Shown here one piece after another: positions 1,855 to 31,307 of a stretch of 64,000 nt of DNA; within the stretch, counting starts at the first letter, position 1; every line of letters begins with the position of its first letter. The stretch is from an uncultured Nitrososphaerota archaeon (GTDB taxonomy: Archaea; Thermoproteota; Nitrososphaeria; Conexivisphaerales; DTJL01). The stretch lies in the NCBI GenBank assembly GCA_963842885.1, contig CAWJIE010000005.1, positions 448,001 through 512,000 of the forward strand, read 5' to 3'. Under the pieces are notes generated by a model. That model made no database searches and was not told the DNA's origin. It worked only from the letters and a program-made list of their open reading frames with translations. Position numbers and translations under genes: made by a program.

Positions 1855-2126
1855 CCGGCTCCACGCTCAACACCTTGCTTCTGTGCCCTAGCCCTTAGTG
1901 TTGCTGCACTAATCGGGTTGACAAGCGAGCCTAACAGGATTAACTGGAAACGGCTTGCATGCCAACGAGCGCGCTCAACACCCAAGGAGGGGGCGGGGGG
2001 ATGCCCAAGCAGGGCATCCACCACGTCGCGGTTGCAGCATCGCGCGCAACACTAGTGCAGCTTCCTTCCACCGAGGAAAGGGATTTTAACCGAAGGAGGG
2101 GACTCCATGACGATTTGCCAGCCAAC

Positions 2127-3374
2127 GTGGTCAGGATCCCTTTCGATGAGGCTGTCACAAGGCTGACTTCTGTTCTGAGGGTGCGGAAGCCCAAGGACAT
2201 CCCCGTGATTGATGCCCTCGGATGTTCCCTCTCCAGCAACATTGTCGCCGACTGGCACCTCCCCAGGTTCGATGTCAGTCACATGGACGGTTACGCGGTC
2301 AGGTCCGCGGATCTTGCAGGCGCTTCTAAGGAGTCTCCTGTCGTGCTCAGAGTCGAGGGGATGTCGCGCCCCGACGGCATGGGGCCATCTGCGCTTGAAG
2401 CCAAAACATGCGTGCGTGTGTTAACCGGAGGCCGCATTCCCTTTGGGTCCGACGCTGTGGTCGCCCAGGAGGCCGTCCAGAGAAACGGGGACAGGGTGTG
2501 TTTCAGTGAAAGGGTCGAGCCGAGGTCGTACATCCACGGCGCTGGCTCGGACGTCCGGGAAGGCACGCTGCTCTTTCGCCGAGGCCATGTTCTCAATGCC
2601 CGTGACGTCAGCTTCCTTCTGGCCTTCGGGCTGGCCTCCATTTCAGTTGGGCCCAGGTTCAGGGTCGGCGTGTTCGCCTCTGGCAGCGAGCTCATAGAAG
2701 GTGTCACCGGGCCCGTCGAGGGGAAGGTCGTCGAGACCAACAGGATGGTCCTGACCGAGGTTATCCATGCGTGCGGGTTCCTCGTCGAAGACCTAGGCTT
2801 ATCGAAGGACGACACCGAGGAGATAGCTTCGCATCTAAGGAAGGGACTTGGTCGCTGCGATGTCATCCTGACCACTGGCGGATCCTCAGTAAGCGAAGCT
2901 GATCTTGTTCCGGATGCGCTGAGGCTGCTGGGTGGGGTTGAAGTCTTCCATGGTCTTCTTCTAAGACCTTCTCGGACCCTCGGGGCATTCCTCCTTGGAG
3001 ACGTGCCGGTGTTCTTGCTTTCTGGCCTGATTCAGGGAGCTGTGAGCGCGTTTTTCAACATGGTTTACCCCGCCCTCAGGTATATGGATGGCCAGGGTTG
3101 GGAGCTCCTTCCTGGTGTCAAGGCTGTCCTCTCCAAGGGCCTGGACAAGCGCGAGGGAGACAAGTTCAGGCTTGTGACGTGGGTGCGCCTAACCGCAGAA
3201 CAGGGAAGGCTGATGGCCGAGCCCGTCATGTCGGCGAGCACGTCACGCTTTGTGCTCACCAAGATGAACGGCTTCCTGGTCGGGGACCCGGGGCAGTCGT
3301 TCAAGGAGGGAGACTTGGTCGATGTAAAGCTGCCCCGTGGGTTCGGGTTGGAGGACGCGCTGGGCGGCCGCTAA
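2127..3374 (+). CDS. moeA: Molybdopterin molybdotransferase MoeA
   Basis: P-R-F-D-x-S-x-MDGYAV, TGGRIP-x-G-x-DAVV, SGSEL, TTGGSS. ORF opens at 1959; GTG 2127, downstream of a TTTTAA box, is the more likely start. Confidence 0.9.
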   Translation: MVRIPFDEAVTRLTSVLRVRKPKDIPVIDALGCSLSSNIVADWHLPRFDVSHMDGYAVRSADLAGASKESPVVLRVEGMSRPDGMGPSALEAKTCVRVLTGGRIPFGSDAVVAQEAVQRNGDRVCFSERVEPRSYIHGAGSDVREGTLLFRRGHVLNARDVSFLLAFGLASISVGPRFRVGVFASGSELIEGVTGPVEGKVVETNRMVLTEVIHACGFLVEDLGLSKDDTEEIASHLRKGLGRCDVILTTGGSSVSEADLVPDALRLLGGVEVFHGLLLRPSRTLGAFLLGDVPVFLLSGLIQGAVSAFFNMVYPALRYMDGQGWELLPGVKAVLSKGLDKREGDKFRLVTWVRLTAEQGRLMAEPVMSASTSRFVLTKMNGFLVGDPGQSFKEGDLVDVKLPRGFGLEDALGGR

Positions 3375-6368: not shown

Positions 6369-6464
6369 CTGGGCATCATCAATGCGGGCACGGACGAAGG
6401 AAACGAAGACCAGAGACCGGCCTCTCGGCATCGTTGCAACCTTGTAAACGTAAATAAGACCGAC

Positions 6465-6968
6465 TTGCCGCAGTTTTATAGCTTGGCGCGGACGAAGCTG
6501 CGTTTCACTTTGAACGGGAACAAGGTCGCCATCTCCGCCCCCCCAGCGAAGACGCTTCTGAGACTCTTGCGTGAGGACTTCGGCCTCACTGGCGCCAAGC
6601 CTGGCTGTGAGGCGGGCGAATGCGGCGCATGCACGGTCCTCTTGGACGGCCTCCCTGTGACGTCGTGCATGGTGCTCGCTTCCCAGGTGGAGGGACGGGT
6701 TGTGACCACGGTCGAAGGGCTGGAGAGGTCGGGCGAGCTCGACGCGATCAGGCGGTCGTTCGCGTCCGAAGGGGCGGTTCAGTGCGGCTATTGCATACCC
6801 GGCTTCGTCGTGACTTCATATGCCGTTATCAAGTCGAACGAGCTCGGTGGCTTTGCTTCGCTCAGAAAGGAGCTGGAAGGGAACATCTGCCGCTGCGGAG
6901 GGTATCCGAAGATCATGTCGGCCGTCCGGAAGGCGGCCAACGCCTCTGAAGAGAGGAGGAAATCTTGA
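6465..6968 (+). CDS. Xanthine dehydrogenase family 2Fe-2S subunit
   Basis: GC-x2-GECGAC-x11-C and QCGYC...CRC motifs. Confidence 0.92.
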   Translation: MPQFYSLARTKLRFTLNGNKVAISAPPAKTLLRLLREDFGLTGAKPGCEAGECGACTVLLDGLPVTSCMVLASQVEGRVVTTVEGLERSGELDAIRRSFASEGAVQCGYCIPGFVVTSYAVIKSNELGGFASLRKELEGNICRCGGYPKIMSAVRKAANASEERRKS

Positions 6969-7836
6969 GATACTCGCAAATAGGGGTCAGCTCCCCACGG
7001 AGCCTCGGCCAAGCGCTCGAGCTCCTTGCCTAGACGTGGCGAAGAATTGCGGGTCATATCGGGGGGCACGGACGTCACCGTCTACCTGAAGGATGGCATC
7101 CTCAAGGAATCTTGCCTTCTGAATTTGAGCAGGCTGAAGGAGTTGGATTACATTCGCGACGAGGGCGGATTCTGTCGCGATAGGCGCGCGTGTCACGTTC
7201 TCCGGGTTGGTGCGGAGCCGAATCGTCCGGCGCTGGGCGCCTCTTCTGTCAGAGGCCGCCGTCGAAGTGGGCTCCCTCCAGATACGAAACCTCGCGACGC
7301 TGGCGGGGAATATTTGCAACGCCTCTCCTGCGGCGGATTCTCTGCCGCCTCTGTACGTCCAAGGCGCGACCGTCGTCCTGACTAGCGCCGAAGGGAAGCG
7401 GGAGCTAACGATGGAGGAGTTCGTGTTGGGTCCCAGGAGGACGGCGCGGAGGCCTGGGGAGCTACTTACAGAGGTCAGGGTCCCCAAGATGGCGTCTGAC
7501 TCTCGCTACTTCTTCAAGAAGCTGGGATTGAGGAGTTCTCAGGCTATTTCGGTGGTTAGCGTTGCGGCCTCTTGGAAAAGGAGGAATGCGAAGATTGCGC
7601 TCGGTGCTGTCGCTCCAACTGTCGTGCGTGCGAGGCAAGCTGAAGCGTTTGTATCTAGATATGGTTTGAGTTTGAAGAGCATTGACGAAGTGTGCTTCCT
7701 AGTGTCGAAGGCCGCCTCCCCCATAGACGACCTCAGAGGGTCAAAGGGTTACAGGCTGGAGGCAATCAGGGCGCTTTCGTTTGAGGGCTTCTATGAACAG
7801 CTCGCAGGAGCGGGGATTGATGCGTGTAAAGCTTGA
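6965..7836 (+). CDS. Xanthine dehydrogenase family FAD-binding subunit, two frameshifts (about 7031 and 7178)
   Basis: Pieces P-x-SL-x2-ALELL / ISGGTD / QIRNLATLAGNICNASPAAD / PIDDLRGS lie in three frames. Confidence 0.88.
7692..7703 (+). repeat. GTGCTTCCTAGT polar motif, copy 1 (inside CDS)
   Basis: Exact 12-mer. 7690-7707 is identical over 18 bp to the reverse complement of 31128-31145. Confidence 0.9.
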
Positions 7837-8044
7837 ACTGGGGGGTCCCCTCCGCGAGGAGAAGGGCCAGTGGCATTCGCTCAGGCTGTCAGTCGGTTCG
7901 ACTGTCAGCGATGCCCTTCGCAAGGTCGGAGTGACCGAGGAGCTCTACATCGTCGTGATGAGGAACGCGAAGAGGGTGGAGCTTTCCGAAGTCCTCGCCG
8001 AGGGGGACGTCTTAGTGGCTTTTCCACCGGTCGGAGGGGGTTGA
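7820..8044 (+). CDS. MoaD/ThiS-family ubiquitin-like sulfur carrier
   Basis: 74 aa beta-grasp pattern ending EGDVLVAFPPVGGG. Confidence 0.88.
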   Translation: MRVKLELGGPLREEKGQWHSLRLSVGSTVSDALRKVGVTEELYIVVMRNAKRVELSEVLAEGDVLVAFPPVGGG

Positions 8045-10335
8045 GTCTGAAGACGGACAAGAAGTGGATATCACGTTCCCTTCCCCGCATAGACGGCGAG
8101 GGGAAGGTGGACGGGTCCGTCAATTTCTTCTCGGATCTCTATCCGCCCGGTTGCCTTTACGCCAAGACCGTGCGTTCTCCTTTGGCCAGGGCAAGATTGA
8201 CCGGTATCGACACCTCCAAGGCCGAGGCATCGCCGGGAGTGCGTTGCGTTGTGACGCATAGAGACATCCAGGGACTGAACGGCTACGGCGTCTTCTTTAC
8301 TGACGCGCCGGTCCTCTGCTTTTCCGGCGTCAACTACGTGGGAGATCCCGTAGCGCTCGTCGCGGCAGACTCCGAAGATGCGGCGGCCAGAGCCGCGGAG
8401 CTGGTCGAAGTGGGCTACGAGGAGCTCCCAGCAGTCCGTAGTATAGAAGAGGCCTTAGAGCCGGGGGCCCCGGCCTTGCATCCAGAAGGCAACGTCGCAC
8501 GTAGCAACGTAATCAGGAGGGGGAGGTTCGAAAAGGCCGTCAAGGAGGCTCGCCATGTGCTGCGGGGCTTTTATGAGACGCAGAAGCAGAAGCATATGTT
8601 CATAGAGCCTGAGGCGGGGCTCGGCTACGTGGACGGCGGTGGAGTCGTGAACCTCTTCGTCGGGGGCCAGAGCCCGTTCAGGGACGTTCTCCAGGTGGCG
8701 AGGAGCTTGGGGTTACCGAAGGAGAAGGTGAGGGTGGTGAGTTTTCCCATCGGAGGCGCTTTCGGTGGCAAGGACGAGGTCACGGTGCAGATACACCTCG
8801 CTCTCCTCGCCCTGAAGTCTCGGAGACCTGTGAAGCTCATGTGGAGCAGGGAGGAGTCGGGAGCAGCAGGCTTCATGCGGCATGCCTTCAAGCTGGAAAT
8901 GGAGACGGGCTTTGACAGGGATGGCAAGATAGTCGCGAACCGTGCGAAGATTCTTGCGGACACCGGACCCTACCGTTCCTTCGGGCCGGCCGTCCTCGAC
9001 GTGGCCATGGAGACCGTCAACGGACCCTATTTGGTGCCCAACTTCATCATCGATGCGAAGCTGGTCAGGACCAACAACGGCCTCTCAGGGGCTTTCAGGG
9101 GTTTCGGCGCCCCCCAGTCGAACTTCGCCATCGAAGGGCAGATGAGCGCGGCTGCCGAACAGTTCGGTTTCGACAAGGCCGAAGTGAGGAAGAGGAACCT
9201 GTGGAAGGAAGGAAAGGAGGGCAACTTCGGGAAAAAGCTCGTGGACTGCGACGGTCTCGCGGAGTGTCTGAGGCGTGCATCCTCTTCTCAGTTGTGGAAG
9301 TCCAGGGGGAGCCTGAGGTCTAGTAGGCCATGGCTCAAGAGAGGTGTAGGTCTATCCCTAGCCGTGAAGGGTATGGGGTTCGGAACCCTTCCAGACTACC
9401 CGTCAGCGGCCGTCGAAGTCGACCCCCGGGGTCAGGTCACAGTTGGGTTCTCCAACCCAGACTATGGGCAGGGGCTGGTGACGACGAACATGCAGATAGT
9501 TGCGGAAAGGTTGGCTGTCCCTTTGACCTCGGTGCACGTCATCGACGCCGACTCTGGGATGGTGCCCGATACCGGGAGCAGCAGCGCTTCACGAAGCACC
9601 TACACTTCGGGAAACGCCCTTCTGAAGGCCTGCGAGGTGGCCATCTCCGTGCTGAGGGTTGAGGCGGCATCAGAGCTCGGGCTCGGCGTGGATGAGCTTA
9701 CTTATAGCAACGGAAAGTTCATGGGCAAGGGCAGGGAGAAAGACATCTTCAGGCTCGCCAAGTCGATGAGGTTAAGAGGTCTCTCCACCAGATTCGTTGG
9801 GACCTTCGAAGTTCCGCGCCACATGTCCACAGTGAAAGGATCTTTGGAGATACCACACTTGATCTACAACTTCGCGGCACTCGTGGGCGAAGTTGAGGTA
9901 AACACTCTCACTGGCAAGGTGGCGGCTAAGAGATTCATGTTCTTCCCTGACATAGGGAGGGTCCTCAATCCCGTCCTGGCTTCCGCTCAGTGCGACGGAG
10001 GCATTACGCAGGGGCTAGGCTATGCATTAACCGAAGAGCATGTCTACGTCGAAGGAGTCCCAAAGACGACGAACTTCACCACCTACCTCGTGCCCTGTTC
10101 TACGGATTCCCCCGAAGAGATATACACCGAATTCATTACGTCCTGCCTGGACTCGGGTCCGTTCGGAGCCAAGGGCGTGGGTGAGATACCTATCATCCCT
10201 GTGGCGAGCTGCGTGGCTGATGCCGTTTCAGATGCTACCGGGACAAGAATATCTTCCATACCGCTCAAACCCGAAAAAGTCTTGGCCGCGCTGTCCAGGC
10301 AAGCCTCTGAACGCAAGTCGGAACGATGGCCTTGA
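8041..10335 (+). CDS. Xanthine dehydrogenase family molybdopterin-binding subunit
   Basis: IGGAFGGK, AFRGFGAPQ, YGQG, SSASRS and GAKGVGE (catalytic Glu). TTG start overlaps the upstream stop. Confidence 0.93.
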   Translation: MSLKTDKKWISRSLPRIDGEGKVDGSVNFFSDLYPPGCLYAKTVRSPLARARLTGIDTSKAEASPGVRCVVTHRDIQGLNGYGVFFTDAPVLCFSGVNYVGDPVALVAADSEDAAARAAELVEVGYEELPAVRSIEEALEPGAPALHPEGNVARSNVIRRGRFEKAVKEARHVLRGFYETQKQKHMFIEPEAGLGYVDGGGVVNLFVGGQSPFRDVLQVARSLGLPKEKVRVVSFPIGGAFGGKDEVTVQIHLALLALKSRRPVKLMWSREESGAAGFMRHAFKLEMETGFDRDGKIVANRAKILADTGPYRSFGPAVLDVAMETVNGPYLVPNFIIDAKLVRTNNGLSGAFRGFGAPQSNFAIEGQMSAAAEQFGFDKAEVRKRNLWKEGKEGNFGKKLVDCDGLAECLRRASSSQLWKSRGSLRSSRPWLKRGVGLSLAVKGMGFGTLPDYPSAAVEVDPRGQVTVGFSNPDYGQGLVTTNMQIVAERLAVPLTSVHVIDADSGMVPDTGSSSASRSTYTSGNALLKACEVAISVLRVEAASELGLGVDELTYSNGKFMGKGREKDIFRLAKSMRLRGLSTRFVGTFEVPRHMSTVKGSLEIPHLIYNFAALVGEVEVNTLTGKVAAKRFMFFPDIGRVLNPVLASAQCDGGITQGLGYALTEEHVYVEGVPKTTNFTTYLVPCSTDSPEEIYTEFITSCLDSGPFGAKGVGEIPIIPVASCVADAVSDATGTRISSIPLKPEKVLAALSRQASERKSERWP

Positions 10336-10453
10336 CGGGTCTTGCATGCCAAGCGTGGGTTCGAATAGCGTAGCGATTTTGGTCGACTTGAGCCCGTCAG
10401 AGCAGTTCTAGGTCCGAAACCGTTGCTCGGTCTTCTACGGGCGACGGCCCCGT

Positions 10454-11068
10454 CTATTTGTAATCTTTTTCGAGTTCGAGTTCTTTGGCGGCTCTTGCGA
10501 AGTCTTCTTGATAGTCTATGTCCAAGAGCGCTCGCTGCGAGGCCGTCTCGACGTAGGTCGTGGTCTCCCTGTATTTCTGGACGACCTCTTTCATCCCGCG
10601 CCTCTCTTCGGATATCTCCATCAGATCGTCAAAGGTAGAGTCGTTGAAGAGGATGGGGTGGCCGCTCCTCCCCTTATATGCAGCCACTACGATATCATTT
10701 TTTGATCTCGCGAACTCGGCTAGGACGATGTCATAGAGACGCGGCTCAGTGAAAGCCATGTCACCGGGGGAGATCACGATCGCCCTCGCCCTGTCCTTCA
10801 GGTATCCCACTCCCGCGCGAATAGATGTGCTCATCCCCTGGAAGTACTCAAGATTGTGCACTTCTTCGAATCGCAAAGCGGAAAGCGCTTCAAGGACTCT
10901 CTCTCTTTCGTGGCCCGTCACGACGACGGTGTACTTGAGGCCCGCTTTCTGCCCGGCGAGGACAACGCGTGCGACGATTGGCACTCCGTCGATTAGTTCG
11001 ATGAGCTTGTTGCGCCCGAAACGGGTGCTAAGACCAGCCGCGAGGACCATCAAATAGATGGGCTTCAA
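10454..11068 (-). CDS. Molybdenum cofactor cytidylyltransferase (MocA-like nucleotidyltransferase)
   Basis: LAAGLSTRFGRNKL, GMSTSI, GDM, GHPILF, DID; adjacent to an XDH operon. Confidence 0.88.
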   Translation of the reverse strand: MKPIYLMVLAAGLSTRFGRNKLIELIDGVPIVARVVLAGQKAGLKYTVVVTGHERERVLEALSALRFEEVHNLEYFQGMSTSIRAGVGYLKDRARAIVISPGDMAFTEPRLYDIVLAEFARSKNDIVVAAYKGRSGHPILFNDSTFDDLMEISEERRGMKEVVQKYRETTTYVETASQRALLDIDYQEDFARAAKELELEKDYK

Positions 11069-11103
11069 GCGTAGCCTCTGTTCAAGACTAGACGTATATT
11101 AAT

Positions 11104-11661
11104 ATGCGTGGCCTGCTCGGATCTCTGTGGTTCATCTCCCTCATTGACTTTCTCTCCTCCACCTACAGGAAAGGTTATGCATTGGTGGTGGGGAGGCCTT
11201 CGAACTTCTCATGGCTGGTACCGGAATCCGTGGCGGGAAGTGGATTCCCTAGCGGACATAGAGCCTTTCGCTGGCTTAATGGGAAGGGAATCAGCGTGGT
11301 CTTGAGCCTGACAGACGAGACGATCGACGACCGGTACGCTGGAAAGATAGGCATTAAGGTCTACAGGCTGCCGATGGTTAACATGGAAGCTGCCGACCCC
11401 GAAGCTCTCGATCACGCGGTTGACCTTATGGTGGAGTCGGGCGACAGGAAGGTTCTCGTTCACTGTCTTGCAGGCATGGGCAGGACTGGCATGGTCCTTG
11501 CTGCCTATCTGATCAAGGAAAAGGGGATGAGCACCGATGAAGCGATTAGTGAAGTCAAGAGACTGAGACCTGGGTCTCTCAGAAGGCGCGTCCAGCAGAA
11601 GGCGATGCGTGACTACGAAACCTACCTACTCAAAGTCCGAGGCAACAAGGCGTCCTCCTAG
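11104..11661 (+). CDS. Dual-specificity/PTP-family protein phosphatase
   Basis: VHCLAGMGRTG (HCx5R) motif; N-terminal NFSWL. Confidence 0.88.
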   Translation: MRGLLGSLWFISLIDFLSSTYRKGYALVVGRPSNFSWLVPESVAGSGFPSGHRAFRWLNGKGISVVLSLTDETIDDRYAGKIGIKVYRLPMVNMEAADPEALDHAVDLMVESGDRKVLVHCLAGMGRTGMVLAAYLIKEKGMSTDEAISEVKRLRPGSLRRRVQQKAMRDYETYLLKVRGNKASS

Positions 11662-12417
11662 TTGCACCAGGCCCTGCCTTCGCATTTCCTCAAGAAGGAA
11701 AAGCGCGTCCCTGTGATGTATCGCGGTCTTGGCGGCGACCGCTTTAACCGCTTCATGGAGGTCCTTCCCTTTTACGGCGAGGCCAGCCTCTTCGATTGCC
11801 CGGTGGTCTCTATTCCGTCTGGCGACGGCCTCGTTGCGGGGCCACCTTGTCTCCTCCACCTCCCCATCCGTCGAGACGAATATCCTTCTGGCGGTTTCGC
11901 CGTCTCCGATGGAGCCGACGTAGCTGGCGTAGCTGTGCCTCCTGACGTCCCATATAGCGTCGAACTCATGGGAGGCGTAGGCTGCGGTCACTTGGCCAAC
12001 GATGATGTCGTGGTCGCCCGCCTCCAAAGATGAAACCAGCTTGCATTCCACCACCGCGTCGGCTTCCCGTATGATTCTCACGCCCGACGTCCTTCCTGCG
12101 CCGATGTGGAGGCCGCTCAGGTCCAGCTTGTTGCGCAGGTACCTCTTGGACACGTCCCCGATGAACGCCATCTGCTGGACATAGCGGAAAGGAAGCTTGT
12201 TGACGGCGAAGGACTTGCTCTTCCGGATTAAGGAGTATGAGTACCGCTCCGGCGAAATGGCGACGCCCACCCTGGGGGGGTTGAGAGAGACCGGCGTGAC
12301 CCACACGACCGAGAGGGCGTCTTCGTCCTTCCCCAAGGCCGCGGATATGACATAGACGGGAGCCGGGTAGAAGAGCCGGTAGACTTGGTCCTCGGGCACG
12401 TCCCTGTAGCGAGACAT
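11626..12417 (-). CDS. Flavin reductase-like (flavoredoxin) protein with C-terminal extension
   Basis: YP-x-PV, W-x-TPVS-x2-PP, F-x-VN, EC, GDH-x3-G-x-V. Confidence 0.85.
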   Translation of the reverse strand: MSRYRDVPEDQVYRLFYPAPVYVISAALGKDEDALSVVWVTPVSLNPPRVGVAISPERYSYSLIRKSKSFAVNKLPFRYVQQMAFIGDVSKRYLRNKLDLSGLHIGAGRTSGVRIIREADAVVECKLVSSLEAGDHDIIVGQVTAAYASHEFDAIWDVRRHSYASYVGSIGDGETARRIFVSTDGEVEETRWPRNEAVARRNRDHRAIEEAGLAVKGKDLHEAVKAVAAKTAIHHRDALFLLEEMRRQGLVQLGGRLVASDFE

Positions 12418-12515
12418 AATATGTCAAAGGTGGCTCCACCCTCCAGCCGAGATAAGGGTTTCTTAACGCGGTACAATAGACAAGGTTAATTTGGCTATGC
12501 CGCTATTAGGATAAC

Positions 12516-12953
12516 GTGTTGAGGAACAGGCTTATCGAAGCCTCTAGAACTCGAGGCCGGGTGTCCGTGAACCTCATCGCTGTCGTTATGGGTGGAGGCA
12601 TCGTTATGACGTTGATCGGCGGCGATTTCCCTCATGTCGGCGCAGTGGCCCTTGCAGAACCTCGCCCCAGCGGGGTCGACAGGGGGAAGACGAGCAGCTC
12701 CGTGTCGGTACTGGTTCGACTGGGGCACAAGGAGGACGAGCTGGCAAAGAGGCTGGCCGGAGATGTTGCTGCTTCGTTGAACCTACCGGTCGTCCTCTCA
12801 GCGGGCATTCATATCGACCACGCCAGCGCCCAGGAAATCCATGATGCCGAGCTCCTGGCTGGCGCTCTGGTTGAGGATTCAGTTCCGAGGATCAGGAAGC
12901 TGCTGGAAGGCGTTCTTCTTAGAAGGAGGCGTCCGCCTCGGTCGCCTTCTTGA
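12516..12953 (+). CDS. LpdD/PAC-like small chaperone-family protein
   Basis: GG-x2-PHVGAVA, GHKEDELA, AGIHID-x-A motifs. Confidence 0.7.
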   Translation: MLRNRLIEASRTRGRVSVNLIAVVMGGGIVMTLIGGDFPHVGAVALAEPRPSGVDRGKTSSSVSVLVRLGHKEDELAKRLAGDVAASLNLPVVLSAGIHIDHASAQEIHDAELLAGALVEDSVPRIRKLLEGVLLRRRRPPRSPS

Positions 12954-13269
12954 AATCGAATGTGCCGTTCTTCATAGTGAGCTCGTACATGTCGTTCACT
13001 TCGAACCTGATGCCAAGGAGGTCGTATTCGTCTTCGGACAGGATTACCGTGAGCTTCGGAAGGATAAGGTCTCTCGCCTGTGGCATCATCACGCCGAGGC
13101 TCTGCATCTGGCTGAGGATTCCCTGAACCATCTGAGCTTCTTCACCGTATTGGGCACCGGACCTCTGTCCTTGCCGGCGTCGGACTTCGACGAGCTCTAC
13201 TTGTTTGCCTGGCTTGCCCGTCTCCATGTCGGTGTGGCTGCTTACTCTATTGACCTTGACTAGAACCAT
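12919..13269 (-). CDS. Arcadin-1 homolog
   Basis: PKLTVILSEDEYDLLG...VNDMYELTMKNG resembles the crenarchaeal arcadin-1 C-terminal pattern (recalled, not searched); similar length. Confidence 0.7.
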   Translation of the reverse strand: MVLVKVNRVSSHTDMETGKPGKQVELVEVRRRQGQRSGAQYGEEAQMVQGILSQMQSLGVMMPQARDLILPKLTVILSEDEYDLLGIRFEVNDMYELTMKNGTFDFKKATEADASF

Positions 13270-13308
13270 CGCGGGCGATTTCTCACCGGACGATGCCTTA
13301 AGTCTTTC

Positions 13309-14286
13309 TCACATACGCCTTGAAATAGTGCGGCGGAAGCTCTCGAGATCCTCGCGCTTGACAATCCTCGCATACGGGTCAAGACCGGCCCCTGAAATGC
13401 CAATCGCTATCGCTTCAGTGTTAGTGAAGACCCCCGGGGTGCCATTCCTATCGATCACTATAATACCCCCAGTGTTGTCCCCGAAGAGCCTCCCCATCTC
13501 CTGTACGGCCTTCTTTGCGGCCAAAGGCGCCGGGTTCTTCGACGCAATTAAGCCAACGGCCCTAAGACAGAGGCCACACTTAATGATCATTTCTCCGACG
13601 CCCGTGGCCGACGCCGCACCAACATTCCCCATGGCATAGTAACCCGCCCCGGCGATTGGAGAATCGCCCATCCGGCCCGGCAGCTTGAATTGCATACCGC
13701 CGGTGCTTGTGGCGGCAGCTAGGCCCCCGTCCTGGTCCAAGGCGACGGCTCCCACGGTGTCGGATGGTGCGGCGGCCCTCAGGTAGTTGCGATCCAGTCT
13801 CCCAATCCACCCCTGCTGCGACGAAGAGAGGTAGGACCTCCAACCCTGTTGGAAGGCCTCCGCCTTCTCTTTGGTGGGTAAGAACTTCTCCCTCAGGCCA
13901 TAGGCTTCGGCTAGCTTCTCGGCACCAGTAGAGACCAAGATGACGTGAGCGGTCTTCTCCATTACTATCCTAGCTAGTTCGACGGGGTGGGGGACGTCTC
14001 GGACGCACCCGACTCCGCCAGCGAGCAGCCTCTCACCGTCCATGATCCCCGCATCTAGCTCGATGTAACCTTCATAGTTAAGCGCGGCTCCCCTTCCAGC
14101 GTTAAGGACGCCCGAATCCTCCATCACCCTGACGGCGGCGACGACAGCATCGACAGCACTGCCCTTCCTGAGGGTCGAAGCCCCGGTCTCCGCCGCGTCT
14201 TCAAGAACCTTCCTGGCTTCTAGTGCAGCTCCTTCGTTCAAAGTCCAACGGCCGGCACCCCCTTGAACCACCATTTTGCCGTTCAA
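13309..14286 (-). CDS. Isoaspartyl peptidase/L-asparaginase (Ntn hydrolase)
   Basis: NAGRGA, ELDAGIMDG, DTVGAVA (Thr nucleophile), TSTGG, GRMGDSP. Confidence 0.93.
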   Translation of the reverse strand: MNGKMVVQGGAGRWTLNEGAALEARKVLEDAAETGASTLRKGSAVDAVVAAVRVMEDSGVLNAGRGAALNYEGYIELDAGIMDGERLLAGGVGCVRDVPHPVELARIVMEKTAHVILVSTGAEKLAEAYGLREKFLPTKEKAEAFQQGWRSYLSSSQQGWIGRLDRNYLRAAAPSDTVGAVALDQDGGLAAATSTGGMQFKLPGRMGDSPIAGAGYYAMGNVGAASATGVGEMIIKCGLCLRAVGLIASKNPAPLAAKKAVQEMGRLFGDNTGGIIVIDRNGTPGVFTNTEAIAIGISGAGLDPYARIVKREDLESFRRTISRRM

Positions 14287-14368
14287 GTTTCTGCAGAACT
14301 CCAGGCGGAGGCTCCAAGCTACCTCTTCTTAAAAGCATGGGGGAAGATGGAGGAGGACTCCGACCGGT

Positions 14369-14536
14369 CTACTTCCGCCTGAGTCCCTGCCGGATGATCT
14401 CCTCGATAAGTCGGCTTCTGTTAGCGGTGACCAGCTGGCCAGCCCTGACCTGGTCCGCCTGATGGCGACGAACGAGCTTGTCAAGATCCTGCAGAAGGTC
14501 TTCAGACAGGGTGATAGTCACCTTGGATTTCTTCAT
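14369..14536 (-). CDS. Ribbon-helix-helix (CopG-like) DNA-binding protein
   Basis: MKKSKVTITLSEDLLQDLDKLV...NRSRLIEEIIRQGL, 55 aa. Confidence 0.8.
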   Translation of the reverse strand: MKKSKVTITLSEDLLQDLDKLVRRHQADQVRAGQLVTANRSRLIEEIIRQGLRRK

Positions 14537-14741
14537 AACATAAGATGGTATGATAGTATGATATAGCCTTTGTGCAAATAGACCATGATGTCCCGATACA
14601 ACAAGATGACGGTCATGGCCGCTCAGGCAGGCCGTCGTCGGCGAGTTGCCTAGCATGTCGATTGGGTCCGAGTTGCACGTCCAAGCTAATGCGCTGCAGA
14701 TATCGAACAAGATATCGTGTAAGATAGAGCCTAGGACCAAG

Positions 14742-15029
14742 CTATGCGTTTTCCTGTTCGATGCCGGCCGAGTCGCCATAGCCGCATCCGCAGGCCATCG
14801 TGTTCGTGAGCACGAAGTGCTTGTCTTCGCCCTCTATAACAAGGTCGATCTCCGCTTGTTCAAGGACCTCCGCGGTCCGCTTGTCTGTCGGGACAAAGAC
14901 ATCTCTTCCGTTGAAGATCAAGTCACCTCCGGGGACTTTGTCGACTAGGAACATGCAAAGTGCTAGGTTTACTTGGTCCGCCTGTTGCATGGAGAAACAG
15001 ATTGCCTCGTACTTGCTTTCAGATAGCAT
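14742..15029 (-). CDS. Hypothetical acidic protein
   Basis: 95 aa ORF with ATG just downstream of a TTTAA box; no recognised family. Confidence 0.55.
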   Translation of the reverse strand: MLSESKYEAICFSMQQADQVNLALCMFLVDKVPGGDLIFNGRDVFVPTDKRTAEVLEQAEIDLVIEGEDKHFVLTNTMACGCGYGDSAGIEQENA

Positions 15030-15145
15030 TCCCTTAAATTTGTCTGTTTTTGCTTTATTAAGTGTAATAAGTGTAATACTTACGAAGTTTGAGTTCGATT
15101 TGGTTTGATGTTAACTTTGTTTATTTTTTTGTTCTGTGATATTGT

Positions 15146-15157
15146 GTGCTTCCTAGT
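15146..15157 (+). repeat. GTGCTTCCTAGT polar motif, copy 2
   Basis: Exact 12-mer preceded by a T/G-rich tract of about 110 bp. Confidence 0.9.
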
Positions 15158-15214
15158 GCCCGAACCGAACGTCTCAAATAGCGCCAAAGCTCGCAATTCA
15201 CCGGCCGAGATGGC

Positions 15215-16045
15215 TTGAGGAGGAAAATCCGCGACTACGAAAGAGACCTTTGGGCACTGTTCTGGAGTTATTCCAATAGCGGCGAATTCAGCGAGATCCG
15301 GACTTACCTCCTCCAGCGCAGTGGACTCCCCGGGCCCAGGGGAAACCTCGAGCTAGCAACTGCCTTCGGGAACGTCATTCAAAGAGGTGTCGTCTCTGGT
15401 GCCCTCGATTCCAAGGAACTCCTCTCGCTCTGTCAGAGCCTGTGCCAGATACCTCCCGCACTGGCACCCACAAACGATCCCAAGGAGTTCTTGGTGCTCT
15501 GCGGAACATGCGGGCTGGGAGCCCTCGGGACCGTGGCAGCAGATTTCCAAGCCGTCGCTTCCAGTCTGAGCTCCTTAGCCGGCGACCTAAGATGGAGAAC
15601 TAGGGAGGGGGTTGCCATGGCCCTTCAGCGGATGATCGACGCAAAGCCAAAACAGACCCTAATGCTACTCGCCCAGTGGGTTGAAGTAAATGACCCCCTT
15701 CTCCTTCGAGCCGTCGTCGCGGGGGTGGCGGAGCCGAGGCTCCTCCGCAACGACGATGTAGCCCGGTCCGCCCTCGGGCTTCACCGGAGGATTTTCGAGA
15801 GGCTTTCGGAACTTGACCGCGAAGGCGACGACTTCAAGGCTCTAAGGAAGAGCCTCGGCTACTCTCTGAGCGTAGTCGTGGCTTCTTCGCCTAGGGAGGG
15901 CTTTGCTTTGATGAATGAGTTGGCTAGGAATGAGGATCATGATGTTATCTGGATAGTGAGAGAGAATTTGACGAAAAAGAGACTGGCGAAGTGCTTGGAT
16001 AATTTGGATACTGTGAAGAAGATACTTTCAAGTAAGCAGGTTTAG
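15215..16045 (+). CDS. HEAT/ARM-repeat-like protein
   Basis: SGLPGPRGNLELA and D-x-RWR-x-REGVAMALQ motifs; all-alpha repeat pattern. Confidence 0.75.
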   Translation: MRRKIRDYERDLWALFWSYSNSGEFSEIRTYLLQRSGLPGPRGNLELATAFGNVIQRGVVSGALDSKELLSLCQSLCQIPPALAPTNDPKEFLVLCGTCGLGALGTVAADFQAVASSLSSLAGDLRWRTREGVAMALQRMIDAKPKQTLMLLAQWVEVNDPLLLRAVVAGVAEPRLLRNDDVARSALGLHRRIFERLSELDREGDDFKALRKSLGYSLSVVVASSPREGFALMNELARNEDHDVIWIVRENLTKKRLAKCLDNLDTVKKILSSKQV

Positions 16046-16151
16046 CCGTTGCATTGTGAAGTGTCTTCTACGTGTCTGGTCTCTTGTATATTGATTCTTT
16101 TGTGTTAATTTATTGAATTGGGTTTTGTTTATAGAGAAGGGTTGGTTGTGT

Positions 16152-16163
16152 GTGCTTCCTAGT
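16152..16163 (+). repeat. GTGCTTCCTAGT polar motif, copy 3
   Basis: Exact 12-mer preceded by a C-poor tract that reaches back into the upstream CDS. Confidence 0.9.
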
Positions 16164-16356
16164 AGGAGGCTGGGCAGGGTGGCTCTGAGCTGCCTTGGTG
16201 TTGTCCATTAGAAGCGTTCTCGACCCAGCAGTCTGGGCAATCAAGCTCGGGTATTTGTCAAGCATGCAATGGGGATGCTTTAGGTGTTGAGCGCGATTTA
16301 GCCTGTCATCAGGGGGACCCGGTAATCGGCGGCGTGCCTACGGGTCATCAGTCGGC

Positions 16357-16587
16357 GTGGACAACTTTATGTATCCAAGAAACGTGGTGTTGTCCGTGCC
16401 GCGACAGAATCTGATCAGGTGCCCTAAGTGCGATAGGCTGGCTTGGAACCCTGATATCGCTATCAGGACCGGTAAGAACCCCGAGAAGAAGTACAGCTAC
16501 TACAGATACAGGCACCCTCTCGACAGGCGGACCGGCCGCAACAAAACGTGCTACGTCCCGGTCGTCAAGCCCGACCCCAACCACTAG
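16357..16587 (+). CDS. Small zinc-finger protein, paralog of 1603..1854
   Basis: CPKCDR-x-W-x-P, RTGKNPE, YRYRH-x2-D-x-RTGRNKTCY. Its TAG stop lies within motif copy 4. Confidence 0.75.
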   Translation: MDNFMYPRNVVLSVPRQNLIRCPKCDRLAWNPDIAIRTGKNPEKKYSYYRYRHPLDRRTGRNKTCYVPVVKPDPNH

Positions 16588-16594
16588 GAAGCAC
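16583..16594 (-). repeat. GTGCTTCCTAGT polar motif, copy 4
   Basis: ACTAGGAAGCAC on the + strand followed by a G-poor, C/A-rich tract. Confidence 0.9.
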
Positions 16595-16681
16595 CCCATC
16601 AAACCAACAACTGCTCTCAACACTCTTAACAATAAGAATTCGAATTTACATAAAAAGATTCTCCCTTATCAATATAACGTA

Positions 16682-17098
16682 TCATTTCCCTCGAAACGCA
16701 TCAGCCTTACGCAACAAAATCTTTATGTTTTCATAAATAGTTGCTCTCATAGCCTCTTCCAAGGTCATCCAAACGAAATCCCGGTGTTCATTCGAAATCT
16801 TCACGTTGACGCTGTCAGTATAACCCAGGTAATATCGTACAGATTTATGAACCTTAGCTCCCCCTGGCCGCAAGTAGAAGTAAGTAATTTTCTCCGCGAA
16901 CCCGTCGACGAGCTTTATGTCAGGGAGGCCCGTTTCCTCCCTTGCTTCTCGGACCGCCGCGTTCAGCTCCGACTCACCAATTTCGATGTTGCCCTTGGGA
17001 AAGTCATACTTCGACTTGTCGTTTCTCAGCAATAGGTACTTGGTGACTCCATCCTGGGTATGGAAGACTACTACCCCAGCCGAACGCTCTTCGAGCAA
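16682..17098 (-). CDS. NUDIX hydrolase (Ap4A hydrolase-like)
   Basis: Nudix box FPKGNIEIGESELNAAVREAREETG; SNEH. Confidence 0.92.
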   Translation of the reverse strand: MLEERSAGVVVFHTQDGVTKYLLLRNDKSKYDFPKGNIEIGESELNAAVREAREETGLPDIKLVDGFAEKITYFYLRPGGAKVHKSVRYYLGYTDSVNVKISNEHRDFVWMTLEEAMRATIYENIKILLRKADAFRGK

Positions 17099-17214
17099 TG
17101 GTCGAACAGCCAGATAGTACCGGAATAGAACCTGACGCCGCTTTAAGCATAGTGTACAGGAAACGAAGCGTGGACTCCCCTACCGCCCGTCGTCAAACTC
17201 GCTGGATGCCATGC

Positions 17215-18845
17215 TCAGCGCCTCCGCTTCTTGTCCTTTTTCACCAGTGTTCGATCTTCGCCATCCAGGGGCTTGACGTCGATCCTCATGCCCAGAGACT
17301 CCTCGAGGCTCATTATGTTCTCCCCCTTCCTCCCGATGAGCCTAGGGATGGTCTCCCGGCCCACCCTGACGACGACCTTGTTGCCAGATAGCAGGTCGAC
17401 TTCTGCGTTGGGGTCGTACTCCTTCATCCTCGAAGCTATCTTGTCGAGGGCGAGCTTCTCCACGCCGGACGCCCTTTTCTTGGCGCCCTCGTCTTGGGTG
17501 ATGGGGACTATCACGTTCTCTTCGCCGAAGGTGTATATTTCATGCGTGAGCCTCCCCGTTTCAAAGTCCCTGACCTCGACCAGGGGCCTGGCCAGGTCCT
17601 CCTCCACCATGCCCGTCGGGGTCCTGACGACAAGGTTCAGATCCAGTACGGCTTGGATCTTCCCGGCCTTGACGAAGATGATCGTGTCGATGATGTGAGG
17701 TATCATCCCGAGCTCCACGCGTCCAATGAAGCGCTGGACTGCGTCGACGGGCCCGCTGGCGTGGACCACCCCCACCATGCCCACCCCCGCCAGCCTCATG
17801 TCGGCGAAAACGGTGAAGTCGGAGGTCTTCCTCACTTCGTCATATATCGTGAAGTCGGGCCGGACGAGCAAGAGGATCTCCGCGGACTTCTCAAACTCGC
17901 CCTCCAGGGCGCCATACTGGGTGATAGCCGGTGGCACCTGAAGGTCCCTCGGGGACTCGAACGTCTTGACGATCTTCCCCTGCCTCATGTAGTACTCCGC
18001 GATACTCGAAGCCAATGTGCTCTTGCCGGACCCAGGGGGCCCTGCGATGATGACGCCTTCGGCCTTGTGGGCGAGCCTCTCCATGAGCTTCTCGGAGAGA
18101 TTGTAGTCCTCCAGCGTAAGCTTCACTATGGGTCGGACGATCGTTATCTCCACACCGTCGCTGAAGGGGGGCCTCGCCACCGCAATCCTGAAGTTCCCCA
18201 GCTGAGTAGACGCTGGCCCCGCTCATCTTGAGTTCCTGGAAGGCGTCCCTGCTGACCCTGGAGGCCTCATGTATCTCGGTCTCAATCTCCTCCAGCTCCT
18301 CCCTGGTGAGGGGCTTCTCCCCTATCTTCACCAGCTCAAAGGCCCCTGGCCCGCCTCTCTTTGCCATGGGCACGACGTCCTCCTTCAGATGGACGCTGAG
18401 GGTCTTGGAGTCGAAATAGCTCTCGAACTTCAGGTCCTTGGTCTTTATTGCCGGGCCGGAGATGCTTCACCTTCACTCCCTCGGCCTCGGCCGTCAGATA
18501 GAGGACGTAGTCGGCGGTGTAAAGGGTCCCGTTCACTTCACGGGCGACGTCCCGGATCATCCCGTCAATCCTTCCCTTCTTCGCCAACCTGATGTCGTCG
18601 AAGGAGGGCTTGGGACCGTAGAAGTAGAGCCTGTAGCCCTTTGACTCGCAGAAAAGGCGGATCTTCTTGAGCTCTGCCAGACCTATGAAACCCACGTTCA
18701 CGTTTCTTGAAGCCTGTGCTTGAAGTTCGTCGAGGGCGGCGTAAGGGACGCAGACTTCGACGTCCTTTATCTCTCCGCTCTCAAGCGAGCGCCAGAAAAT
18801 ACCATCTATGATGGCGCTCGTATCCAGTACGGCAGTATCTGTCAT
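17215..18845 (-). CDS. PINA-type PIN-domain ATPase with C-terminal KH domain, split by two frameshifts
   Basis: Pieces: PIN (VLDTSAIIDG, YTAD), middle (PMAKRGGPG), ATPase (GPPGSGKST, ESPRDL, DEVR) and KH (LIGRKGENI). Confidence 0.9.
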
Positions 18846-27843: not shown

Positions 27844-28405
27844 AAGGTTGTGAGGCGTCTATGCGCTTCGAAAGTATGGAGGTGAGGAGCTCGTCCCTGT
27901 CTATCTCCACGCGGCTCCTCCACCCGACCCGGATGAAGTCGCCATCTTCCTCCAGGTAGCCCAGGCGCACGAGCTTGTTCATGATCTGCTGAACGCGCCA
28001 CGCTGGAAGCTTCTCCTTGATGGTGTCCTCAAGGAGGCGCTTGGGGGCCGAGCCCGCACGCACGAAGAGCTGGCTCAAGAGGATGGCCAGGCTCGCCGCC
28101 TCCTCCATCCTGAGCCATCCGCCAAGCTCCCTGTCCTTCAGGGGCGCCTTGGTCACCAGCACGTAGCGGGCCTTGTCCGGATCCTTCTCGTCTTCCTCGT
28201 CGGGCACCGCGACGAGCTTCAGGCCGAATTCCGAGGCCAAAGAGTCCGTCAGCTTGAGGACGTCAAGGTAGCTCCTCCCGAGGAGGCGCTTGAGCTCCCA
28301 ACCTTTGAGACCAGGCTGGAAGTGGCGCTGGTAGAGCAGTGTCGTAAGGCCCTTCAGGGCCTTCTCTTTGAGCTCTTGCGTGTCCTTGTTCTGTTCTTGT
28401 GTCAC
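27836..28405 (-). CDS. Tandem winged-helix kite subunit (ScpB/Nse1/Nse3-MAGE-like)
   Basis: GTG start after a GGGGTGA RBS; C-terminal LAILLSQLF...KLVRLGYLE...GWRSRVEI resembles the MAGE/Nse WH-B domain; third gene of the SMC operon. Confidence 0.7.
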   Translation of the reverse strand: MTQEQNKDTQELKEKALKGLTTLLYQRHFQPGLKGWELKRLLGRSYLDVLKLTDSLASEFGLKLVAVPDEEDEKDPDKARYVLVTKAPLKDRELGGWLRMEEAASLAILLSQLFVRAGSAPKRLLEDTIKEKLPAWRVQQIMNKLVRLGYLEEDGDFIRVGWRSRVEIDRDELLTSILSKRIDASQPST

Positions 28406-28410
28406 CCATC

Positions 28411-29139
28411 TCACCCCAATGAAATCGCAACGGACCTGTCTACTTTGCCCTCCGCAGGCGTTATGAGATAGTCCGAAGTGGACGGGTCGTAGCGGAGGGC
28501 GAACGCTCCCCTCATGCACAGGTGGGCAAGAGAGTAGGTCTCCTTGAGCTTCTCCGCCCCCTGGAAGCCGCCCGCGAACTCCTTGAAGAGAAGAGGACCT
28601 TCGGCAAGCCTCCGGCTGACCCTGAGGAATGTGGACCGGAGGCACTTTTCAAGCTCCTCGGGGTCCATCCTTATGGATTCATAGGCGGTCCCTTCGTCCG
28701 CTGGTCCCAGCGGCCCCAGCCGGCCTAAAGAACCCCACCCGTAGAGCTGCACCCAGTAATCGGCGGCCTCGAGCAGCCTCGAGGTGGGCATCAGCTTCGC
28801 AGCGGCCGGGGGATGGTGCGCCTCCCCCAATGCCCCCGCTATGTCCGAGACGCTGAGAGACATCAGCTTGGAGATGAGAAGGCCCGGGTCCACCTGGAAG
28901 GTCGTCAATTGGAAGGTGAGCCATTCGTCCTGCAGGCCGACGACCTTGCTGACCGCGTTGATGGCCTGGGCGTCGGCGAGGAGGTCTTGCCTCTCCAGCT
29001 CCTTGAGGCCCTTCTTTAGCCTCCTCAGTATGGGCTTGACCTCCACCATGAAGGGATCTCCTCCCTGGTCCTTGAGGTCCTCAGGGAGCGAAGCCACCCT
29101 GAGCCTGTACTCCTTCGCGTCACTCGACTTTGCTGACAC
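28411..29139 (-). CDS. Kleisin (ScpA/Nse4-like)
   Basis: N-terminal DPF-x-V...DL-x3-AQAI-x2-VS helices and C-terminal WH (LLFKEF...YSLAHL-x3-G). Overlaps the SMC gene. Confidence 0.7.
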   Translation of the reverse strand: MSAKSSDAKEYRLRVASLPEDLKDQGGDPFMVEVKPILRRLKKGLKELERQDLLADAQAINAVSKVVGLQDEWLTFQLTTFQVDPGLLISKLMSLSVSDIAGALGEAHHPPAAAKLMPTSRLLEAADYWVQLYGWGSLGRLGPLGPADEGTAYESIRMDPEELEKCLRSTFLRVSRRLAEGPLLFKEFAGGFQGAEKLKETYSLAHLCMRGAFALRYDPSTSDYLITPAEGKVDRSVAISLG

Positions 29140-31048: not shown

Positions 31049-31131
31049 CGCCGCCTATCCGCTAAGAAGACAGGTAATAAACCGTTTGCCATCCTACTTA
31101 GTTGACAACCGCCTAGATGTGGCTGACCGAC

Positions 31132-31143
31132 ACTAGGAAGCAC
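31132..31143 (-). repeat. GTGCTTCCTAGT polar motif, copy 5
   Basis: ACTAGGAAGCAC on the + strand followed by a C/A-rich tract; about 85 bp upstream of the SMC start. Confidence 0.9.
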
Positions 31144-31307
31144 ACACCAAAACAACTCCAAAATTCAACAACAACTATGCGAATGGAACCCAGAGCAAGA
31201 GAAGCTAACAGAACTCATGAAGCGGTAGAAAGAAGCACAAATGCCGACCCTAACCATAAGGCCCCAGTGCCCAAGAAACAAGACGGCCGCCGCACCTGTC
31301 GGCTCTC

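Follow-up and report, generated by a model that had tools for sequence, protein, structure and literature searches.

Strand-asymmetric mutation is usually seen as a faint skew, genome-wide or gene-wide. In transcription-associated asymmetry, cytosines are deaminated on the non-transcribed strand, including at R-loop-prone gene ends with positive GC skew. Polar replication-fork barriers are found in bacteria as Tus-Ter and RTP-Ter; we know of no fork-barrier system of this type in archaea. RNA polymerase I of eukaryotes terminates at roadblocks made of a Reb1 or TTF-I site and an upstream T-rich release element. Here we describe a locus from an uncultured Nitrososphaerota archaeon, in a window of 64,000 nt (G000:C5:448001-512000, G000 being the genome under study, 2.03 Mb in 11 contigs), to which all positions below refer. 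An oriented 15-nt motif, GTGTGCTTCCTAGTG, is present there in five copies (c1 to c5), and each copy is preceded on its 5' side, on the motif strand, by a graded, C-poor and T-rich stretch of about 50–250 nt. The footprint is sharp, local and anchored at the motif: C is nearly gone from its non-coding parts, and in its coding parts only synonymous pyrimidines have moved. The geometry of these tracts, their strand specificity, their effect on codons and their gradient between lineages are established. As to their origin, the best reading, which we hold tentatively, is a strand-specific C-to-T bias beside the motif, filtered by selection on the encoded proteins.

Three of the five copies match the motif exactly and two have one mismatch. 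Shuffling gave an expectation of 1.46 matches, and five matches were reached in none of 100 shuffles. No further copy with one mismatch or fewer was found in the whole 2.03 Mb genome, and all copies lie within 24 kb. Three lie on the + strand: c1 (7690–7704, 15/15), which encodes V-C-F-L-V inside the gene of the XDH FAD-binding subunit, c2 (15144–15158, 15/15), between a divergent open reading frame (ORF) of 95 aa and a HEAT-like gene, and c3 (16150–16164, 14/15). The other two lie on the − strand: c4 (16582–16596, 14/15), which contains the TAG stop codon of a zinc-ribbon gene, and c5 (31131–31145, 15/15), about 85 nt before the SMC-like ATPase ORF 29120–31048. A 12-nt core of the motif is present in three of four congener genomes (G002, G003 and G004; the one lacking it is 59% complete) and in none of 26 genomes from other genera of the order, which the public name of one protein-cluster member gives as Conexivisphaerales. 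Judged from these sequences, the motif is oriented and genus-specific.

The motif sites are syntenic in the relatives. They are found in the XDH FAD-subunit gene (imperfect there), before and after the HEAT-like gene, between the zinc-ribbon and NUDIX genes (one or two sites), and before the SMC-like ATPase gene (one site). In every genome the orientation flips across the zinc-ribbon gene, so that the copies converge on the centre: counting one-mismatch copies, three + copies face two − copies in G000, four face three in G003, two face three in G002 (contig C119), and two face one in G004 (contig C109). Since the sites are orthologous across genomes, this convergence is one observation, not four. 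An additional copy is found at G003:C17:101458, between a KH-domain ATPase gene and the NUDIX gene. A known RNA family was rejected as the identity of the motif, because Rfam gave no match in the window at gathering scores. A dispersed mobile repeat, or the ends of mobile elements (terminal inverted repeats, miniature inverted-repeat transposable elements), were rejected as well, since the copies are confined to 24 kb and syntenic in four species; no transposase was found between c2 and c4 by Pfam and profile searches. Among the papers listed by a full-text literature search for the motif string or its reverse complement, none is related by title, all being biomedical or methods papers; among those listed for Conexivisphaera, no title or abstract opening concerns origins or motifs.

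The tracts are confined to one side and one strand of the copies, and end sharply at the motif. Averaged over the five copies, the C content of the motif strand is 0.26–0.32 at −400 to −300 nt, 0.16–0.18 at −200 to −100, 0.10 at −50 and 0.03 in the last 25 nt, and it is back to 0.23–0.30 from the motif onward. Over about 250 nt before a copy, mean C drops from 0.28 to 0.03. Meanwhile T climbs to 0.48, and G stays at 0.22–0.39, well above C on the same strand. With a C-poor tract defined by a 60-nt window with at most 4 C on one strand, 116 such tracts were counted genome-wide, and four of the five longest are at the motif cluster; the other long ones that were inspected are ordinary AT-rich intergenic DNA without the motif. 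Random sets of five windows matched the observed mean C or the observed skew in 0 of 20,000 draws.

Individually, the tracts differ in what they cover. The one before c1 (7522–7689, + strand) is coding, and consists of a shift from third-position C to third-position T (C3 and T3 hereafter) that is strongest at 7642–7689. The one before c2 (15030–15143, +), the second-longest C-poor tract of the genome, has C at 0.05, T at 0.58 and G at 0.22 in its last 60 nt; it overlaps the former N-terminus of the 95-aa ORF on the opposite strand. The tract before c3 (15875–16149, +) takes in the last 57 codons of the HEAT-like gene and a 104-nt spacer (16046–16149), and the tract before c4 (16597–16900, −) an 85-nt spacer and the 3' part of the NUDIX gene. 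The longest C-poor tract of the genome, 16574–16703, lies at c4. Before c5 (31146–31270, −), C is 0.07 and T 0.50 in the last 40 nt, and the tract stands where three relatives have the 5' part of a small divergent ORF together with its promoter region. No alignable sequence is common to the tracts, which share composition only. A scan with C taken as T detected no decayed motif copies in them, and the only tandem structure was one 9-nt repeat of 2.2 copies.

The coding tract before c1 had been singled out in an earlier reading of the window (hereafter the original prediction), which proposed that this copy encodes V-C-F-L-V in the XDH FAD subunit, that the codons before it are T-rich and that C-ending codons resume right after it. 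This is what is found. Copy c1 reads GTG TGC TTC CTA GTG, in frame with the FAD-subunit ORF 7207–7836; it is preceded by TTT GTA TCT AGA TAT GGT TTG AGT TTG AAG AGC ATT and followed by GCC GCC TCC CCC. In sliding windows of 15 codons, 5–7 codons end in T from 7522 to 7657, versus a genome mean of about 2, and past c1 T3 drops to 0–1 with C3 at 6–8. Over the 56 codons of 7522–7689, C3 is 0.12 and T3 0.38, versus 0.31 and 0.15 in the remainder of the XDH gene, and the ratio C3/(C3+T3) is 0.25, a value as low in 102 of 62,144 same-size windows genome-wide. The 15 codons from 7642 have 4 C in 45 nt; equally C-poor windows are not common, making up 0.26% of 495,894 in-frame windows in 1,599 long ORFs.

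Orthologs of the XDH gene do not share these T-ending codons. In the three relatives, T3 in the tract region is 0.11–0.21, and the c1 site reads GTT TGC TTC CTA GTG, GTG TGC CTC CTA GTG or GTG TGC CTT CTA GTG; among the four species, G000 is the only one with a perfect copy, and likewise the only one with an XDH tract. The ortholog of G008, an outgroup from another genus (55% identity), has GCG AGC GAA CTG GTG, that is A-S-E-L-V, at this site, and T3 in 2 of 31 upstream codons. The peptide at the c1 site is genus-specific. The rare leucine codon CTA (5.8% of Leu codons) is kept in c1 in four of four genomes, which is matched by 3 of 364 conserved Leu columns, and 12 of the 15 nucleotides of c1 are invariant across genomes. 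Such invariance is equalled by 9% of 15-nt coding windows, so that a nucleotide-level constraint on c1 across the genus is weakly indicated.

The same drift had been proposed for the 3' ends of the HEAT-like and NUDIX genes, and it is stronger there: the HEAT-like gene has 3–5 C per 45 nt from 15890 to its stop codon (p from 0.0007 to 0.007), and the NUDIX gene 4–7 C per 45 nt in its last 100 nt. No loss of C3 was seen in the last 50 codons of outgroup NUDIX genes without a nearby motif (four of four genes). The 184 codons of the three coding tracts (7522–7689, 15875–16042, 16685–16900) were pooled and set against the remaining 437 codons of these genes. Third-position C was 0.13 in the tracts versus 0.36 in the rest, T 0.35 versus 0.15, G 0.37 versus 0.33, and A 0.15 versus 0.16. 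Among pyrimidine third positions, C and T numbered 24 and 64 in the tracts versus 159 and 64 elsewhere (Fisher test, p=1.5e-12). Purine third positions were unchanged, with 68 G and 28 A versus 144 G and 70 A (p=0.60). A demand for a weak duplex or for AT-richness is therefore disfavoured, as it would also have moved third-position G to A.

The shift follows a gradient between species. In 90 columns that encode the same amino acid in all four species, C3 and T3 are 0.18 and 0.34 in G000, 0.27 and 0.24 in G002, 0.34 and 0.20 in G003, and 0.39 and 0.17 in G004; outside the tracts, the four species are alike in the same genes. In the relatives, this pyrimidine shift is present but weaker (pooled p=3e-6). 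Within 100 nt upstream of the copies, mean C is 0.11 in G000, 0.17 in G002, 0.21 in G003 and 0.22 in G004, to be compared with 0.29–0.31 in random windows and 0.24–0.28 downstream of the copies. The tracts are strong in G000, intermediate in G002, and faint in G003 and G004.

Could codon usage in the XDH tract have fluctuated at random, beside a merely fortuitous motif match, and could the intergenic tracts be ordinary AT-rich promoter or terminator DNA? The G000-specific gain of T3 relative to the relatives was ranked in 2012 windows of 25 codons from 32 genes. Motif-adjacent windows rank 4th (XDH), 5th (HEAT-like) and 8th (NUDIX), and ranks 1–3 and 6 are taken by motif-free windows (2889–2904, 13431, 18455). 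The latter ranks would be in line with chance, as are the 102 genome-wide windows with equally T-rich third positions and the commonness of the 12/15 invariance; the peptide V-C-(F/L)-L-V, moreover, explains much of the match. On the other hand, the exact 15-mer has a probability of 0.0044 given the peptide and the codon usage of the genome, and there is no other copy at one mismatch or fewer in 2 Mb. Copy c1, which is 7.5 kb away from the cluster, has the orientation expected from the convergence, the tract stops exactly at the motif, the ranks of the motif-side coding tracts are high, and CTA is kept throughout the four genomes. We regard chance as quite unlikely. The original prediction had presented the XDH tract as the best internal control; it is a good one, being 4th of 2012, but it is not the only one of its kind. 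The tract is rare yet not unique, and the case rests on all copies together.

The T-ending codons before V-C-F-L-V are best explained as the coding face of a feature of the whole locus. In the three coding tracts, composition and orthologs alike give a deamination-type signature, with an excess of C-to-T on the non-template strand and unchanged purines. A strand-specific C-to-T bias, as favoured above, might arise if the motif is a protein-binding site acting as a polar obstacle. RNA polymerases (four of the five copies are downstream of a same-strand gene) or replication forks would stall on the 5' side of the motif, and stalling would keep the motif strand single-stranded, either as the non-template strand or as the lagging-strand template, so that its cytosines would deaminate more. 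Queueing polymerases would expose the right strand for four copies, over the right length scale; according to gene annotation, transcription would run toward c1, c3, c4 and probably c5, but not toward c2. Fork arrest would fit all five copies geometrically.

Damage at gene ends is seen as well. The 95-aa ORF (14742–15029, −) starts 18 codons earlier in the relatives. Its former N-terminus is still in frame in G000, where GTA at 15083–15081 (−) stands in place of the GTG start codon of G003 and G004, a C-to-T change on the motif strand. The NUDIX hydrolase gene (16682–17098, −; Pfam NUDIX) has a 3' end 10 codons shorter than in three relatives. The lost start and the shortened ORFs, among them the small one at c5, fit a pressure better than a design. 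In its most specific form, the proposal would make the motif a strand-specific C-to-T mutator site acting over about 250 nt on its 5' side, bound by a protein of the cassette (the zinc-ribbon or the HEAT-like protein), with converging copies as polar obstacles to polymerases. Its effect would suffice to recode synonymous positions, remove a start codon and shorten ORFs nearby, and would vary in strength between sister species. This full version is rather unlikely as a whole.

Several points weigh against a mutational bias. Its cause is read from composition, not from a mutation spectrum. The motif is not sufficient, as perfect copies in G003 and G004 have weak tracts only, with an upstream C of 0.21–0.22 versus 0.29–0.31 in random windows; furthermore, intergenic DNA is less GC-rich anyway. 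The motif-free windows of ranks 1–3 and 6 show a gain of T3 equal to or larger than that of the motif-adjacent ones. The distal part of the c2 tract is low in both G and C, as in an ordinary promoter region. The version with RNA polymerases fails for c2, since the upstream gene there is divergent. Forks coming in from the two sides should leave a strand switch, but none is found at the cluster, where the GC3 skew of the top strand goes from +0.015 to −0.012, versus +0.085 to −0.072 at the orc1-linked origin; this speaks against a fixed terminus as well. The spacer before c3 is 104 nt long in G000 versus 0–30 nt in three relatives, which makes part of it added DNA and not altered resident DNA. 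A difference in repair is not found, since G000, G002, G003 and G004 each have two genes of the uracil-DNA glycosylase (UDG) family; a simple repair defect was dropped as an explanation, UDG-family genes being present in all five congeners searched. A window-specific GC-to-AT bias is also seen outside the tracts, and the differences between close strains, described below, hint at a raised rate but give no spectrum, their types coming from 40 of 665 differences. The original prediction of a mutational effect filtered by protein selection is partly supported: the motif-tied, one-strand shift from C3 to T3, restricted to pyrimidines, is upheld, and a mutational cause is the tentative reading. Its further statement that the tract is no inserted repeat holds in part, as the c3 spacer is about 100 nt longer than in the relatives and close strains have another 31-nt insertion there.

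The main rival to a mutational bias is that the tracts are selected T-rich, C-poor elements which form a composite signal with the motif, either as a roadblock with its release element, stopping transcripts that enter the central region, or as a binding surface for the RNA or for the protein of the motif; C-to-T would then be the easiest mutational route to a T-rich strand. Runs of T are indeed found in the tracts: seven T before c2 (where no same-strand gene is upstream), five after the NUDIX gene, and four after the HEAT-like and PfkB genes. Three of the five directly follow a same-strand stop codon, that of the HEAT-like, NUDIX or PfkB gene. For these reasons, the claim of the original prediction that the tract is not a terminator is not established. 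In the relatives, the motif sits 0–30 nt past stop codons, a regular tie to gene 3' ends, and the convergence of the copies on the centre in all four genomes would suit a signal as well. Three copies of G003 are directly followed by five to seven T, which would also fit; these runs, however, come after the motif and not before it, and both G003 and G004 keep the motif without the tract. The XDH shift is diffuse over about 170 nt, inside an operon, and has no run of more than three T; it would make a poor terminator, and one that would cut off the gene of the large subunit. A graded profile over 250 nt and unchanged purines are unlike a discrete element, and the tracts removed a start codon and parts of two ORFs. 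Selection of the tracts as elements is possible, though in our view doubtful.

Near-identical DNA is present in peat and freshwater metagenome runs, and close strains were compared over 6400–18400 with contigs from four runs of two studies (runs X1 and X2 come from the same study and possibly from a single population). Records of X2 have 23 differences in 4849 nt over 9288–14136 (0.47%), 37 in 1973 nt over 14107–16079 (1.9%), and 29 in 960 nt over 16380–17339 (3.0%). Those of X3 have 15 in 579 nt over 15061–15639 (2.6%), 35 in 947 nt over 16380–17326 (3.7%), and 0.15–1.2% in five flanking pieces between 7852 and 13789. Strain divergence is thus 1.9–3.7% in the segment from 14.1 to 17.3 kb versus 0.15–1.2% in the flanks, that is 4–8 times higher. 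A record over 6939–8627 has 13 differences, six of them within the 190 nt upstream of c1 (Poisson, p=0.004). All six are transitions, and the five that could be polarised with two other runs are GC-to-AT, three being C-to-T on the motif strand and two G-to-A. Contigs of three runs have 31 extra C-poor nucleotides at 16079, in the spacer before c3, so that tract length is polymorphic within the species; single-base length differences also occur in the tracts of close strains.

These data bear on another possibility, that the locus is a hot spot of recombination or gene conversion, importing divergent, lower-GC alleles with T-rich flanks. The raised divergence of the segment and the indels in its tracts would fit, as would the 18 identical nucleotides shared by c1 and c5. 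Protein identity to the congeners, too, is lowest for the HEAT-like protein (59–65%) and the 95-aa ORF (54–58%), versus 70–91% for most neighbours. But the tracts have no alignable sequence in common, nor decayed copies or tandem units, and imported low-GC DNA would lower G too, and would neither stop at the motif nor spare its 3' side. A conversion hot spot is improbable as the source of the tracts.

Oriented repeats by AT-rich DNA at a single locus could also suggest a replication origin or a chromosome-organising site, with the motif as initiator or partition box and the tracts as unwinding elements. One copy lies upstream of the SMC-like ATPase gene, and in four genomes the cumulative GC skew peaks locally close to the cluster; the orc1-linked origin is at a maximum too. 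Yet there is no switch of third-position skew at the cluster, and the local peaks are syntenic and follow gene orientation; calling an origin or a terminus from the suggestive cumulative curves was abandoned, as their signal is gone once genes are separated by strand. The canonical origin recognition box (ORB) repeats of the genome (TTTCCACTGGAAA with a C-run) are on contig C4, next to orc1; they share only a TTCC core with the motif, of which no copy is present there. Both Cdc6_C matches of the genome are off the contig of the window. The AT-rich tracts are not conserved in G003 and G004, and their purines are unchanged, unlike what selection for melting would give. An origin or organising site at the cluster is very unlikely. 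As a separate observation, the ORB-type repeats lie at about 345.8–346.2 kb of C4, beside orc1/cdc6 and at the cumulative GC-skew peak of that contig; if this is an origin, the G-rich strand runs 5'-3' toward it, opposite to the usual bacterial polarity.

By position and co-occurrence, the HEAT-like and zinc-ribbon proteins are candidate motif binders. The HEAT-like gene (15215–16045, +) lies between the direct copies c2 and c3, belongs to no Pfam family, and is found within its family only in the four motif-holding genomes (4/4 co-occurrence). Profile searches of Pfam (including DNA_alkylation) and of the PDB gave nothing significant for its product. The predicted structure of the protein (predicted local distance difference test, 89) was closest to AlkD2 (Z 18.0, root-mean-square deviation 2.8 Å over 204 of 207 residues), followed by AlkC (Z 14.5), the predicted alkylation-repair enzyme 2b6c (Z 13.2) and AlkD (Z 11.3), with 13.4 for the best generic repeat protein. 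Foldseek returned generic armadillo repeats only, at a template-modelling score of about 0.3, and a language-model atlas placed the protein by HEAT-repeat clusters, with alkylation-repair clusters at 0.88. In this model, the fold is closest to that of the HEAT-like-repeat DNA glycosylases, with a solenoid of the same kind.

The zinc-ribbon gene (16369–16587, +; 72 aa) lies at the centre of the cluster, between the inverted copies c3 and c4. No family was found for its product, the best match being to a recombinase zinc ribbon with an E-value of 0.21, and its atlas neighbours are unnamed archaeal clusters. A paralog with 51% identity at 1627–1806 (−) is also present in the relatives, and homologs are found in two other genera. 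The paralogs of the genus and the homolog of genome G005 are preceded by a conserved element, GGGGAT..TTAGGTGTTG... All these paralogs and homologs, including that of G006, are preceded by short repeated words that differ by genus (GTGTTGAGCG, GTGTTGCCACC, TGACACAA), and which look like lineage-specific binding sites as far as sequence can tell. Beside c5, the SMC_N-type ATPase (642 aa, 29120–31048, −) is followed by an ORF (27836–28645, −) with a weak match to the MAGE homology domain (E 0.006), which hints at an SMC-like protein with a kite-type partner at 27836–31048.

Some other features of the window were recorded. The XDH FAD-binding subunit gene (6975–7836, +; Pfam FAD_binding_5 and CO_deh_flav_C) is split in three frames in this assembly. 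Its frame breaks, near 7029 and 7170, are single extra bases, and exactly these are absent from the public-run contigs; they are probably assembly errors and not gene decay. The public contigs also differ by single-base indels at 11125, 14649, 15124, 16138 and 18206, and the assembly probably carries about one indel error per 1.7 kb over these 12 kb. The strongest G000-specific gain of T3 (0.44 versus 0.15 in the relatives) is at 2889–3000, in ORF 1959–3374 (+), with no motif nearby. ARAGORN predicted a 103-nt tRNA-Gly(CCC) at 13688–13790 (+), inside the opposite-strand asparaginase ORF 13309–14286; it has no Rfam match, is either intron-bearing or false, and is unrelated to the tracts.

If the cause of the tracts is mutational, the locus is a natural experiment on local mutation pressure versus protein-level selection, and shows protein-DNA obstacles shaping sequence in archaea that are so far without genetics. 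If the tracts are selected, they make with the motif a new composite signal (motif and one-strand T-tract) in archaeal gene expression. Attention is further drawn to a cassette specific to the genus, made of an oriented motif, a DNA-glycosylase-like protein and a small zinc-ribbon protein.

Among described systems, the HEAT-like-repeat DNA glycosylases (AlkD, AlkD2, AlkC, AlkF) resemble the predicted fold of the HEAT-like gene product, a likeness that concerns the gene and not the tract. The protein of G000 differs from them in having no sequence match to DNA_alkylation or to any PDB chain, and its link to the motif is co-occurrence in four of four genomes. Archaeal ORB repeats with an AT-rich unwinding element are similar in that repeated, oriented boxes adjoin AT-rich DNA at one locus. 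The genuine ORB-type repeats of G000, however, are on contig C4 beside orc1 and of another sequence, and the present locus has no orc1, no skew switch, and a change on one strand. With Tus-Ter and RTP-Ter, it shares non-palindromic, oriented sites in two opposed groups, a small gene of DNA-binding type at the centre, and a site that can lie within genes. It differs from them in that there is no strand switch of the terminus type, the weak sign present being of the origin type, and in that the tracts are on the outer face of the sites; arrest would thus take place before a fork enters, unlike in a fork trap.

The RNA polymerase I roadblock terminators are similar in that an oriented protein site at gene 3' ends has a T-rich stretch immediately before it on the non-template strand. 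The tracts described here are far longer than a release element, however, reach into the third positions of codons, and are missing in two sister species that keep the motif. Transcription-associated asymmetry shares with them the C-to-T change on the non-template strand, for the genes that enter four of the five copies, with purines untouched and G far in excess of C. In contrast to that asymmetry, the change at this locus is anchored at a motif, ends sharply, extends over 50–250 nt and not over whole genes, is also found before c2, where no annotated gene runs toward the motif, and varies greatly between sister species.

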